From Labedaea sp. (GTDB taxonomy: Bacteria; Actinomycetota; Actinomycetes; Mycobacteriales; Pseudonocardiaceae), in assembly GCA_045806965.1 (NCBI GenBank), contig JBJMIG010000059.1, positions 2,656-66,655 of the forward strand: a DNA stretch of 64,000 nucleotides, in the 5' to 3' direction. Position 1 is the first letter of the stretch; each line of letters begins with the position of its first letter. Position numbers and translations under genes: made by a program. The notes below the pieces were generated by a model that saw nothing but the letters and a program-made list of their open reading frames with translations, was not told where the DNA came from and ran no database searches. Positions 33,689-38,444 of the stretch are shown here, piece after piece.

Positions 33689-34854
33689 TCAGTAGCCGAC
33701 GTAACCGCCACCGCCGTGGATCGCCTTGATGCCCGGCACGTTGCCGAGCGAACCGTAGCGGCTGACCGAGTAGCGGACGCCGGCGATGATGTTGTCCACC
33801 GGGTTCCAGATGTCGTTGTGGCCGGGCAACTTGTGCGCGTTGAACGTGGAGTCGATGCACTGCATCAGGCCCTTGGACGGGTGACCGGCCGCCGCGTTGG
33901 AGTCCCACAGGTTGATCGCCTTGGGGTTGCCGCCGGACTCGTGCTGGATGATCTGCCAGATGTACTGGGCGTCGGCCTCGCTGACGTTGATCCCGTTCTG
34001 ACGCAGGATCTCGATCGCCTGCTTGATCCACTCCTGGACGTTGCCCGGCGGCGGGCCGCCGGTCGGGGGACCGCCGCTCGAGCCGAGGCCGCCACCTCCT
34101 CCGCCGCCGCCACCGGTGGGACCACCGCCACCACCGCCGGTCGGGCCGCCGCCCGCCGCACCGGCGCCGGTGCCGGTGCTGCCGTTGCCGCCGCTGCCCG
34201 GGGGCGGGCTGTCGGTGGTACCGGACGGCGCGGTCTGGCCGGGCGGTGTCGGCGTCCACTCGATCGGTGTGCCGGGTTGCGGGGTGAACGGCTGGGTGTT
34301 CGGGTCGGACATCGAGGAGAACGTGCTGGCCGGGCTGGCCGCGCCGGCCAGTGTCCCGGCCGCGGCGCTCAGCACGGCCTCGGTGCCGTCGAGGTGCTTG
34401 CGGATGTCCCCGGCGGCCTCGCCGCAGATTTCCCTGGTGTACCCGTCGAGCTGGGCCTGGTCGGCGTCCTTGTGGTTGCGGAGCCAGGTGTTGATCTCGG
34501 TGAGCGCCTGGTCGCAGCGGGTCTGGACATAGCTCTTGGCGCTGGTGAGGCCTCCGCCACCTTGTTGAGCGCACCGGCCGCCTGGGTCATCGCGCCGCCG
34601 ACGTCCGTGCCGGCCTTGCCGAATCGGTCCATGTAGGCGACGAACTGGTCCGCCGAGGTGCCCTCCCAGGCGGCGTCGAGGCCGCGGACCGCCTTGCCGA
34701 CCGCACCGGCGTTGGCGCTGGCGTTGGTGGCCGCGGTGGACAACCGGGCAGCCGCCGCCGCGACCGCTCCCGGGTCGGCGTTGTCCACCTTGCTCGCCTG
34801 AGCGGTCACCAGGTCGCCGCCCGCGTACCTGGCCAGGTCACCCGCCGCGCTCAC
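33689..34854 (-). pseudogene. WXG100-like N-terminal domain fused to a Pro/Gly-rich linker and a C-terminal lytic transglycosylase (SLT/GH23), interrupted by a 1-nt frameshift near 34548-34553
   Basis: Frame A runs from GTG 34854 and reads ...LDAAWEGTSADQFVAYMDRFGKAGTDVGGAMTQAAGALNKVAEA. It then degenerates into low-GC3 junk. Frame B becomes GC3-rich and protein-like from the same point (LTSAKSYVQTRCDQALTEINTWLRNHKDADQAQLDGY...) and ends in IIQHESGGNPKAINLWDSNAAAGHPSKGLMQ. Confidence 0.6.
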
Positions 34855-35162
34855 AGCAGCCTCACCTCTGGGGTCATCGAACGGACGTTGTTGTCCTCGG
34901 TGTTCTGCACGCTCCGCACCACCGCGTCCAGCGACCGCGCCACCTGGTCCAACGTGTTCTCCGCGGCGGTGAACTCCTTGTGCATCGCGGAGTTCAGCGC
35001 GTCGACGGCGCGGGCCACCGCGGCCGAACTCGTCAGCTCGCCGTACGCCGCGGCATTCCCGCCGCCCTCCGGGAACGTGTCCGCGATCTCGCCGAACTTC
35101 GGCTTGTAGTCCTGCGCCCGGCGCATGCAGTCGTTGATCGCCTCGATGTTGTAACTGGGCAC
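34851..35162 (-). CDS. EspC/DUF2580-like small helical type VII secretion-associated protein
   Basis: 103 aa from GTG 35162 (GGAGGG 9 nt upstream). Central AAYGEL motif and helical flanks, as in EspC-like proteins. Stop overlaps the start of the next gene (GTGA). Confidence 0.55.
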   Translation of the reverse strand: MPSYNIEAINDCMRRAQDYKPKFGEIADTFPEGGGNAAAYGELTSSAAVARAVDALNSAMHKEFTAAENTLDQVARSLDAVVRSVQNTEDNNVRSMTPEVRLL

Positions 35163-35356: not shown

Positions 35357-36124
35357 TCACACCTCGTCCAGTAGTTCCCGGACGAAGCCGGCCAGCATGG
35401 CGTTGTCCGCCGGGGTGACGGTGCTCCAGGTCTTCCCCGCGTTGTTGGGCCTGGTCAGGTAGGCGTAGCGGCCTTCGGGGGTGTCGTGGAAGGCGACCAC
35501 CCGGTCGGCCCGGCGGACCTGCTGGTCGCGCGGGCGGCGCTCCACACCGAACTGGCCCCTGGCGGCCATGCCGGCCAACATCGCGGCAAGGCCCTGGGCG
35601 TCCAGTTGGGAGACTCCCTTGTCCCGCAGGAAACTCGCGAGCTGCTGCGGGGTCTCGGCGCGGGCGTCGGCGGCGTGTAGCAGGTCGGTGTCGACACTGA
35701 CCGAGAAGCCGCGGCCGGCCGGAACCACTCCGGCCACCGACACCGCGGCCTCGGCCAGTGCGGTTGGCCTGGCCGGGATCAGCCACACCTCGCGCGGCTC
35801 GACCACGGCGAGCAGGCCCTGGCCGTTGGCGGTGACCGCGAGCGAGGAGATCTCGCGGTCGGTCCAGACCCAGCTGTCGATGCTGAACCCGGGATACGCC
35901 AACAGGTTCAGCCAGTCAGCGAGCTCCGCCTTGGCGCGCTCGCCCTCGGCCAAGCCGCGCCGCTCGAGATCGTCGAACGCGGTACGGCGCAGTTGGGCCC
36001 GCTCGGTGTGGGTCCGGCCGGGACTGACCATGGTGAGCGCGACGTGCCTCGGTGGCAGCCGCTGCGCCTCCCACAGCACGTCGAACTCCAGCGTGGACAG
36101 CACCACGCTGCCGGTTGCCGGCAC
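35357..36124 (-). CDS. espG: ESX secretion-associated chaperone EspG
   Basis: 255 aa. N-terminal LSTLEFDVLWEAQRLPP hallmark of the EspG family. Immediately downstream of the PPE-like gene. Confidence 0.8.
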   Translation of the reverse strand: MPATGSVVLSTLEFDVLWEAQRLPPRHVALTMVSPGRTHTERAQLRRTAFDDLERRGLAEGERAKAELADWLNLLAYPGFSIDSWVWTDREISSLAVTANGQGLLAVVEPREVWLIPARPTALAEAAVSVAGVVPAGRGFSVSVDTDLLHAADARAETPQQLASFLRDKGVSQLDAQGLAAMLAGMAARGQFGVERRPRDQQVRRADRVVAFHDTPEGRYAYLTRPNNAGKTWSTVTPADNAMLAGFVRELLDEV

Positions 36125-36139: not shown

Positions 36140-37405
36140 TCAGCCCTCGTCGTCATCGTCACCGATCAGCGCGGGCGCGATCGGCCGGTAGTCCTCGAAC
36201 ACGTCCGCCGACTCGACCCCGTACTTGCGCACATGCTCGCCGTCCTCCTCGTCCGGGGCGTTGCCGGTGGCCGGCTGGAGGATCGAGCTGGCCGCCGGTT
36301 TGGGTGATCGCGCGCCGAACTTCTCGGCGTTGCGCACGCTGCGGGCCTCCTCGGGCGGCTCCTGGGCGAGCGGTGACTTCGGTGCGCCGCCTCGACCCTC
36401 GCGCTCCGCTTCGGCGACGCCGCCGCCGGGCGCACCACCCGCGCCCGGCCGGCCGCGCACCAGGCGGTCCTTCTCGGTGGTCGCACCAACCGCCGCACCT
36501 TGCGCTCCCGCGCCGGCGATCGCGGCCGCGTCGGCGACCAGGAGGGAGGGAACCGCACGCGGGCCGAATCCCGGTGCACCCTCGACCGGAAGGCCGGTCG
36601 GCAGCGGCAACACCGGTCCGACGCCGGTTCGTGGACCCGGCTGGCCTGGCAGGCCTACCGGGCCGGGCCCGGGCGCCGGGCCGCCGGGCTGACCGCCGAG
36701 CAACGGCGCTGCTCCCGAGCCGCCGGGGGCCGGTGCGGAGCCAGGGGCGCCGGGTGGTTGGCCAGGAGCGCCCGGGGTGAAGCCGGACCCGCCATGGAAG
36801 CCGTCCACCGGGCCGACCTGGGTTCCGGTGGCGGACTGCTGCGTGACCAGCCCGACGCCGGGCGGGACCGGGAGTGTCTGCACCCCGCCGATGGCTGAGG
36901 AGCTGGCCGACTGGTATCCGTTCAGGCCGGCGATCGCCTGGTCCCGCGCGGCACCGGTGGACGCGACATCCTTGGCGTGGTCGGTGGTGTGCCCGAGCAG
37001 GCCGGCGAACCGGTCGAACCCGTCAAGCTGGGTGGGCCCGCGCAAGGTGCCCGAGTCCGGCGCGCTGTTTCGGGTGTGCGCGAACGATCCGCTCTGGTTC
37101 GACACGCCCTTGGCCGACTCCCCGACCGGCGTCACCGCGTCCTCGGCAAAGACGGAAGCCTGCTTGGTGGCCGCGGTTCCGCCGTCCGCCGCCTGGCCCT
37201 GCCAGGACACCCCGATCTGCTGCAACTGCTCGCGCAGCACCCGGTCCGTCTCGGCCAACCCCCCGGCAAGCGCGATGAGTGCGCGCGCGGCGTTGTGCAA
37301 ACTCTCCGACCCGGCCCCGTTGCGCAACCCGTCGACCTGCTCGGCCAAGGCCTGGTTGTCGTATCCCTCGAACCGCAGGTCGTCGAGCCCGTAGTCGCCG
37401 TCCAT
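36140..37405 (-). CDS. PPE-like domain protein with a long Pro/Gly-rich C-terminal region
   Basis: ATG 37405 after GAGGTGAGG. N-terminal helical PPE-like domain (FEGYDNQALAEQVDGL ... IGVSWQGQAADGG, containing WxG) followed by a low-complexity PG-rich tail. Confidence 0.75.
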   Translation of the reverse strand: MDGDYGLDDLRFEGYDNQALAEQVDGLRNGAGSESLHNAARALIALAGGLAETDRVLREQLQQIGVSWQGQAADGGTAATKQASVFAEDAVTPVGESAKGVSNQSGSFAHTRNSAPDSGTLRGPTQLDGFDRFAGLLGHTTDHAKDVASTGAARDQAIAGLNGYQSASSSAIGGVQTLPVPPGVGLVTQQSATGTQVGPVDGFHGGSGFTPGAPGQPPGAPGSAPAPGGSGAAPLLGGQPGGPAPGPGPVGLPGQPGPRTGVGPVLPLPTGLPVEGAPGFGPRAVPSLLVADAAAIAGAGAQGAAVGATTEKDRLVRGRPGAGGAPGGGVAEAEREGRGGAPKSPLAQEPPEEARSVRNAEKFGARSPKPAASSILQPATGNAPDEEDGEHVRKYGVESADVFEDYRPIAPALIGDDDDEG

Positions 37406-37414
37406 TGCCTCACC

Positions 37415-38053
37415 TCACTTCAACGTTCGCAACGTCTGCACGGCCAACCCGGCCGCCTGTTCGGCCCGTTGGCACAATTCATCAAGCGTGAACGTATGGT
37501 TCCCGTCATTGTCGGTGTTGACCATCAACTGCTGCCCTTCGGCCACATCGACCGACGTGCTGCAATCAGGAGTGTTGTGGCCATTCGCGCCGCGAAACCA
37601 ATAGGTGGCAGCCGGATAGGTCTCCACCGAGGCGAGCCTCGCTTCGACATTTCTCTTGCCACCCAACCACGGCCCTATACCTTCGTTGGTTACCAGTGTC
37701 ACGGCGAACTCGTAGTACGGCGGCTGCCGCTGCACGCTGAGGATGCATTCCGGCATGCCGTTGTACTGCTGCGATTTGTTGGTCGAATTTCGGACCCGGT
37801 TCGCCTTCAGCTGATCCCGTTGCGGCTCGGTGAACAGTGCGCACGGGTCGAGCCCGTCCAGCCTCAACTCCTTGGGCCGCGGCGGAATCTGCACCGATGA
37901 TGACGGGCGCCCCGAGGACGAGTTCGGCGACTGACCGGAGGTGCCAACCGATGTCGCACCGGGCGGCGGCGCGGGCTCGCCGGCCTCGCTCCGGGTGCAA
38001 CCAGCCACGGCGAGCAGCCCGGCCAGAGCCAACACCGCCGGGCAGCTACGCAC
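37415..38053 (-). CDS. DUF3558-like secreted lipoprotein
   Basis: GTG 38053 gives MRSCPAVLALAGLLAVAGC (lipobox). LDPCALFTEPQRDQL motif and conserved Cys pairs resemble DUF3558. The start overlaps the upstream stop (GTGCGTAG). Confidence 0.7.
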   Translation of the reverse strand: MRSCPAVLALAGLLAVAGCTRSEAGEPAPPPGATSVGTSGQSPNSSSGRPSSSVQIPPRPKELRLDGLDPCALFTEPQRDQLKANRVRNSTNKSQQYNGMPECILSVQRQPPYYEFAVTLVTNEGIGPWLGGKRNVEARLASVETYPAATYWFRGANGHNTPDCSTSVDVAEGQQLMVNTDNDGNHTFTLDELCQRAEQAAGLAVQTLRTLK

Positions 38054-38444
38054 CCCTTGTACCACCGAACGCGGCCGCCACCTCTTCGTCGGTGTACCCG
38101 TATGCCTTCGCGCTGTCCCCGCATTGCCGCGCCAGCTTGTACAAGCCGTCGATGTACTGCTTGATCCGATTGGCATAGGAGTTCTCGTGCTCCACGAGGA
38201 GGTCATTCCAAGCCGGCGCGATCCGGATGCTGACGTCGTCGTCGCCCGGCGGCACGACCCGCAGGTCGCCATACCCAGTCCGCAGCTTTTCGTGGAGAAC
38301 GTCCGCCTGGGTTTGGATGATTTTGGCGGCGGCCAGGACGTTGTCCTTGCTCACCGCGAAGGTGTTGGTGGTGAGGGTGGTTGCCTGGTCGAGTTGGGCG
38401 AAGGCGGTGCTGAGTCCCTGGCCGATCTCGCCTGGAAGTTCCAT
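38046..38444 (-). CDS. PE-like helical hairpin protein (non-mycobacterial PE domain)
   Basis: 132 aa, GGGGAGG RBS. PGDDDVS motif comparable to the PE AADEVS region. C-terminal YGYTDEE matches the YxxxD/E export motif. Confidence 0.55.
   Translation of the reverse strand: MELPGEIGQGLSTAFAQLDQATTLTTNTFAVSKDNVLAAAKIIQTQADVLHEKLRTGYGDLRVVPPGDDDVSIRIAPAWNDLLVEHENSYANRIKQYIDGLYKLARQCGDSAKAYGYTDEEVAAAFGGTRGA

Follow-up and report, generated by a model that had tools for sequence, protein, structure and literature searches.

A one-base deletion splits a conserved gene for a WXG100-domain/SLT-domain fusion protein in a draft Labedaea genome

Described systems and the gene cassette in Labedaea

In M. 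abscessus, the SigM regulon includes orphan ESX-4 substrate operons such as Mab_1828-1832 and Mab_3663-3664 (PMC13491425). The former is SigM induced and encodes a PE protein, a DUF3558 protein, a PPE protein, and a WXG100 protein, followed by a WXG-bearing NlpC/P60 hydrolase (PMC13491425). [quoted passage not shown] Peptidoglycan hydrolases dedicated to secretion include EssH of the S. aureus T7SSb, EtgA, and the VirB1-type lytic transglycosylases of T3SS and T4SS (PMC13059805). Our literature search for papers on WXG100-SLT fusions found no experimental study.

The window, i.e., the whole 64,000-nucleotide stretch of DNA that was analyzed, harbors a six-gene cassette whose last gene is broken. 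On its two sides lie purD and an aminotransferase gene, and its first five genes are as follows.

38046..38444, minus strand: PE-like protein, first gene of the cassette (PF00934, E = 1.2e-4, 22.7 bits against a cutoff of 22)
37415..38053, minus strand: DUF3558 lipoprotein-like protein (PF12079, E = 1.5e-23, 84 bits)
36140..37405, minus strand: PPE-like protein of 421 aa (PF00823, E = 1.3e-4, 22.5 bits, under the cutoff of 26); its C-terminal part is conserved in relatives
35357..36124, minus strand: EspG-family chaperone (PF14011, E = 4.5e-63), syntenic in relatives
34851..35162, minus strand: small helical partner of 103 aa, conserved beside the hydrolase gene

Like Mab_1828-1832, the cassette brings together genes for PE-like, DUF3558, and PPE-like proteins, a small helical partner, and a WXG-bearing wall hydrolase, and it lies apart from the ESX core. 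It differs in that the hydrolase belongs to the SLT/GH23 type, the espG gene is inside the cassette, and the host is a member of the Pseudonocardiaceae. Its gene order is that of an orphan ESX substrate cassette, and the six genes form a conserved set that probably encodes type VII secretion cargo. The 103-aa partner matches no Pfam or NCBIfam family; in tblastn searches, a protein encoded at the same position is 63 to 82% identical in the loci of four genomes of the same genus (L006 to L009) and of the closest metagenome relative (L017), and 28 to 37% identical in family-level loci.

Elsewhere in the assembly, eccB and eccE are present on another contig (C39:41656-47094) beside truA-rplQ-rpoA-rpsD, a position that resembles that of ESX-4 in mycobacteria; a subtilisin-like ORF is found there too. 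A motif scan for an EccC-like ORF (at least 1,000 aa with two Walker A motifs) gave only ABC transporters, and EccC may be absent from the 85%-complete bin.

A one-nucleotide break inside a single gene

The broken gene occupies 1,166 nt of the minus strand (34854..33689). Adding one base gives 388 codons and a stop, in accordance with the single ORF of about 388 aa that a preliminary description of this DNA had anticipated. The features of the gene are as follows.

34552..34854, minus strand: 5' part of the gene, codons 1 to 101, in the original frame (PF06013 match, GC3 of 0.86 to 0.97, tblastn match to residues 1 to 102 of the orthologue P0001)
34546..34551, minus strand: frameshift site, with one base absent at the junction of the Ala102 and Leu103 codons (DNA alignment, Viterbi model, tblastn)
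33689..34548, minus strand: remaining 3' part, shifted to the -1 frame (PF01464 match, GC3 of 0.97, tblastn match to P0001 residues 103 to 379)
34373..34375, minus strand: GTG, first possible start codon in the downstream frame (ORF 33689..34375)
34369..34371, minus strand: premature TGA at which the original frame ends (ORF list, three-frame translation)
33689-33691, minus strand: stop codon of the gene

Several signals place the break. When GC3 on the minus strand was calculated in 90-nt windows, frame 1 had values of 0.86 to 0.97 upstream of ~34600 and frame 0 a value of 0.97 downstream of ~34540. A seven-state Viterbi frame model, consisting of six frames and a noncoding state, with long ORFs of this genome as the training set, put the frame change at 34548/34549. 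When P0001 was searched against the whole assembly with tblastn, residues 1 to 102 matched in frame -3 and residues 103 to 379 in frame -2 (the latter with 83% identity), and the boundary between these matches falls on a single nucleotide, C59:37204, corresponding to position 34549 of the window. No second copy or paralogue was found by this search of the 85%-complete assembly. Together with the DNA alignment described below, these results agree with the frame switch at 34540-34560 proposed in the preliminary description, and the GC3 profile and the Pfam matches to both parts bear out its view of a WXG100-like frame upstream followed by a -1 frame that runs through the SLT domain. The site is the only same-strand junction in the 64-kb window at which the upstream frame stays open for more than 45 nt beyond the switch.

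We also observed that the Gly/Pro linker region (34087-34356), with its GGN and CCN codon runs, shows a higher GC3 in a wrong frame and on the opposite strand. This anomaly misleads frame-based gene models; it is a local artifact and not a second frameshift.

The orthologues are uninterrupted. A protein search with the downstream piece retrieved over 100 homologues from the Pseudonocardiaceae, in each case one uninterrupted protein of 370 to 400 aa with PF06013 and PF01464; the source names include Actinophytocola, Kibdelosporangium, Lentzea, Saccharothrix, and Actinokineospora. The shorter homologues listed (~300 aa) all come from short or partial contigs, and none shows a natural split. The best match, P0001, has 387 aa, is 86% identical, and reads ...ALDKVAEA-LTSAKSYVQTRCDQ... 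across the point of the frame change. We aligned the DNA of the window with that of five orthologues, namely, those in L017 (the P0001 contig and closest metagenome relative, with 89% nucleotide identity to the window) and in L006 to L009. One open frame of ~370 to 390 aa is present in three of the four same-genus genomes and in the closest metagenome contig; in the fourth same-genus genome, the gene is likewise a single open frame but carries an in-frame intein. The order PPE-like gene, EspG gene, gene for a ~100-aa protein, broken gene, and aminotransferase gene is kept in the loci of the relatives, and this shared neighborhood identifies the compared genes as orthologues. The comparison with orthologues that had been suggested as a check therefore yielded uninterrupted genes, and separate-gene orthologues with a start near 34.5 kb were not found. 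With the gene single in every relative examined, the earlier reading of one WXG100/SLT fusion gene split by one nucleotide is upheld.

In the DNA alignment, the window displays one 1-nt gap, which falls on the last base of the Ala102 codon (GAGGC-CTCACC in the window, GAGGCGCTCACC in the orthologues). The codons at the site are GCC-TCA in the window and GCG-CTC or GCG-ATC in the relatives. As the relatives have GCG at Ala102, the lost base need not come from the C run and probably lies outside a homopolymer. The previous proposal that one extra C in the GGCC run would restore the ORF thus holds with respect to the single base, although the lost base need not have been a C.

Our results confirm that a single conserved gene is disrupted by a one-base deletion, an ordinary feature of a kind already known. 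It corresponds to the frameshifted pseudogenes and assembly indels of draft bacterial genomes in its single-base indel, in a stop ~60 codons farther on, in an intact downstream frame, and in intact orthologues. Nothing distinguishes it from ordinary frameshifted genes; the affected gene happens to encode a secretion-tagged muralytic enzyme. For annotation, 33689-34854 should be treated as one frameshifted gene and not as two ORFs.

The break separates parts of one helical domain. The 5' part extends from helix 1 through the WxG turn (AAWEGTS) into helix 2, of which it encodes the first half, and the N-terminal piece matches the WXG100 family PF06013 (E = 3.9e-9, 37.1 bits against a cutoff of 27.3). 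The 3' part encodes the remainder of helix 2, followed by helix 3, a linker rich in Gly, Pro, and Thr (~34060-34330), and an SLT domain with the sequence QHESGGNP (PF01464, E = 2.2e-12, 47 bits against a cutoff of 21.3). In an alignment of 42 homologues, W63 and G65 are invariant, as are E305 and S306 of the catalytic E-S motif (QHESGGNP), which is present in the window. The AlphaFold model of P0001 contains helices at residues 28 to 62, 66 to 127, and 133 to 172, with a turn at 63 to 65, a disordered Gly/Pro linker at 204 to 270, and an SLT domain at 272 to 379. In this model, the break at residue 102/103 falls in the middle of the second helix (62 residues), at a pLDDT of 92 to 97 and away from any domain boundary. 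The protein thus has the helix-turn-helix with W-x-G of the WXG100 superfamily, and the profile match with a catalytic Glu in an E-S motif identifies the C-terminal domain as SLT/GH23. Canonical Esx proteins stand alone, have ~100 residues, and are paired; the intact form here, with ~388 aa including a linker and an enzyme, is instead a WXG100-domain fusion.

The helical domain may also be PPE-like. The N-terminal ~170 residues of the intact-orthologue model superpose best on PPE41, PPE15, and PPE4 (~165 columns), with target-normalized TM values of 0.63 to 0.69 at weak Foldseek E values of ~0.03. As with the PE/PPE-EspG complexes (PE25-PPE41-EspG5, 4w4k/4kxr; PE8-PPE15-EspG5, 5xfs), genes for EspG and a ~100-aa partner are situated just upstream. 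Unlike PPE proteins, the fusion has a C-terminal enzyme; identity is 13 to 16%, and an N-terminal PPE motif was not seen. The Pfam PPE match in the orthologue P0104 reaches 21.5 bits, under the threshold of 26, and a sequence search against PDB chains found no meaningful relative.

Past the break, the original frame continues for ~60 codons that are rich in Pro, Arg, Ser, and Thr, have a low GC3 (0.45 to 0.69), and display no homology. The ORF list and the three-frame translation agree with the preliminary description that this run ends at the TGA at 34369. They likewise support its statement that the downstream frame has no start codon until GTG 34375; neither ATG, GTG, nor TTG occurs before it. 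A start at this GTG would yield a protein of 228 aa without the secretion domain.

The premature TGA and the first downstream GTG overlap (GTGCTGA, 34369-34375), and a GAGG lies just upstream of the GTG. These elements would suit two genuine genes, one for a stand-alone WXG100-like protein and one for an SLT enzyme starting at GTG 34375, coupled by GTGCTGA. However, the downstream frame shows coding signal from ~175 nt before GTG 34375 onward, in a region that matches orthologue residues 103 to 160, and the tail of the supposed upstream gene is the low-GC3 stretch without homology. Furthermore, the break lies inside a continuous helix, no homologue is naturally split, and the SLT product would have no export domain. 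We therefore regard a two-gene arrangement as highly improbable and the overlap of TGA and GTG as a coincidence. A different overlap is found at the start of the gene, where the GTG start codon (34854-34852) overlaps the TGA of the upstream 103-aa gene (GTGA, 34851-34854), which suggests translational coupling between the partner and hydrolase genes.

Recoding had also been named as an option for this site. With a programmed -1 shift, whether on the ribosome or by transcriptional slippage, the full-length fusion would be made from the shifted DNA, perhaps in a regulatory manner, and the only point in favor of this reading is that a -1 shift at this exact site would give the conserved protein again. 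Neither an X XXY YYZ heptamer nor a long homopolymer is present at the site, G GAG GCC TCA. For the 116 nt downstream, the minimum free energy is -33.4, close to the mean of -32.3 for shuffled sequences (z = -0.35), and the shift is shared by none of the >100 homologues and by none of the five aligned orthologous DNAs. As slippery site, stimulatory structure, and conservation are all absent, programmed frameshifting was rejected, and recoding is very unlikely. Even when recoding and two genes are taken together, we find them improbable explanations of the locus. We likewise give very little credence to a reversible or bypassable switch, in which a phase-variable indel or low-level recoding would keep cargo export off in most cells and restore it in few.

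Mutation or assembly error

Two explanations for the missing base then have to be weighed: a deletion present in the sequenced population and an error of the assembly or its consensus. The assembly comprises 106 contigs and 5.97 Mb, has a G+C content of 70%, and is 85% complete. Universal 16S motifs (515F and 1492R sites) and a 23S motif, three motifs in all, gave no match in the 5.97 Mb, and the bin seems to lack rRNA operons. The lack of rRNA motif matches and the number of contigs make a short-read metagenome bin likely. In short-read (Illumina) data, random read indels seldom reach the consensus.

We also examined how frequently such frame switches occur in the genome as a whole, defining a candidate as a same-strand junction with an upstream frame that remains open well beyond the switch. 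Candidates number 4.5 to 11 per Mb, against 7.5 to 12.5 per Mb in a finished single-contig relative, from which 400 kb were sampled and whose candidates are defined by frame signal alone, without homology. The 27 strong candidates are divided almost evenly between deletion type (13) and insertion type (14), and this split shows no technology-like bias. With an ordinary frame-switch rate, no deletion bias, and no rRNA motifs, an indel-riddled long-read assembly was rejected.

Frameshift-like junctions in or beside conserved Pfam domains were observed elsewhere in the assembly at C22:31275, C32:15783, C77:42234, C93:41031, C93:219438, C7:22605, and C61:13116. Pfam matches uphold five of the strong candidates as true breaks; three of these fall within a conserved domain and the other two at the edge of one. 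The genes concerned encode an MFS transporter, an ABC transporter (broken at Walker A), a MASE1 sensor, an alternative sigma factor (sigma-70), and a Trp halogenase, and junctions in two integrase genes may plausibly be added to them. The other frameshifts are all in accessory genes, as would be expected of natural pseudogenes.

In the broken gene itself, the downstream frame has 285 codons without a stop, and dN/dS is 0.27 relative to L017. A downstream frame that is undamaged in this way indicates that the change is either very young or artifactual. Exact-pattern scans of metagenome and genome contig collections found neither the shifted allele nor the allele with one base added, and exact-protein look-ups of the window ORFs and EspG returned no record.

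We lean toward a real and very recent deletion, that is, a young pseudogene in the sequenced population. The frame-switch load does not exceed that of the finished relative, the bin is of a short-read type in which consensus indels are rare, deletions and insertions are balanced, and the site is probably outside a homopolymer. Against this stand the conservation and synteny of the gene across the family and the lack of a paralogue in the 85%-complete genome, which make a fixed null allele less expected. The absence of secondary decay fits an artifact equally well, and a G+C content of 70% and the strain mixtures of metagenomes can give rise to rare consensus indels.

It is appreciably possible, although in our judgment not probable, that the gene is intact in the organism and that the base was lost in sequencing, assembly, or polishing of a high-G+C metagenome. 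The perfectly kept downstream frame (no stops, GC3 of 0.97, and the low dN/dS), the conservation and synteny of the gene in every relative examined, the draft state of the assembly, and the several further frameshift-like junctions within conserved domains would all be accounted for in this way. What speaks against an artifact is the same evidence on frame-switch load, deletion bias, and short-read appearance, along with a site outside any long homopolymer.

Predicted consequences and the intact family

If the deletion is real, an ancestral single gene for a T7SS (ESX) cargo protein would have lost one base in codon 102/103. In the sequence as assembled, translation from the native GTG (34854) gives 102 native residues and ~60 out-of-frame residues and ends at 34369. 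This truncated product retains only half of helix 2 and has neither helix 3 nor the linker nor the enzyme. Production of the SLT part would be possible solely from the internal GTG at 34375, without the export domain. With a truncated product and an SLT domain deprived of its export domain, the gene is a null allele in this assembly.

In the intact form, a flexible Gly/Pro linker joins a WXG100/PPE-like N-terminal domain to a C-terminal lytic transglycosylase of the SLT (GH23) type, which would cut the glycan strands of peptidoglycan. We infer from the sequences that this protein is muralytic and is exported through the T7SS with the help of the partner and EspG: it would pair with the 103-aa protein encoded upstream, be kept export competent by EspG, and leave the cell via the T7SS. 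Inspection by eye of the window product, P0001, and the 103-aa partner revealed no clear instance of a YxxxD/E export motif.

Once exported, the SLT domain might open the wall of the producer for secretion. As with EssH, EtgA, and the VirB1-type enzymes, a muralytic enzyme is here genetically tied to a secretion system and could open the wall locally for export. EssH differs in being a CHAP/NlpC-type nonlytic hydrolase with a Sec signal, whereas the SLT domain here is fused to a T7SS-type export domain. The fusion may equally be an antibacterial effector. Like EatA, it joins a helical N-terminal domain of the T7SS type to a glycoside hydrolase of the cell envelope; the enzyme families and substrates are different, and an EatI-like partner is not evident here; no immunity gene for the SLT fusion was identified.

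A real deletion would mean that this lineage has just lost a conserved lytic transglycosylase, presumably exported by the T7SS, of which no paralogue was detected in the 85%-complete assembly. Such a loss, if true, might indicate that cells can do without the enzyme in some conditions. The intact family, with its WXG100/PPE-like and SLT domains, EspG, and small partner, is widespread in the Pseudonocardiaceae. The frameshift alone matters little, and the intact family and its intein are of more interest than the broken copy.

The intein was observed in the orthologue of one same-genus genome, G001 (L009:2442-3537; G001:C383), a single ORF with a 365-aa in-frame insert in the SLT domain. The insert lies between ...AINNWD and SNAAAGHPSKG, and the orthologous position in the window is ~33890. 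Its first residue is Cys, its last is an Asn that precedes Ser, and a LAGLIDADG_3 domain is present within it, features that identify it as an intein. A search with the insert revealed the same arrangement in over 60 WXG100-SLT members of the Pseudonocardiaceae, with lengths of 690 to 770 aa and source names that include Amycolatopsis and Actinokineospora. Other SLT proteins and phage tape-measure-like proteins also carry related inteins.
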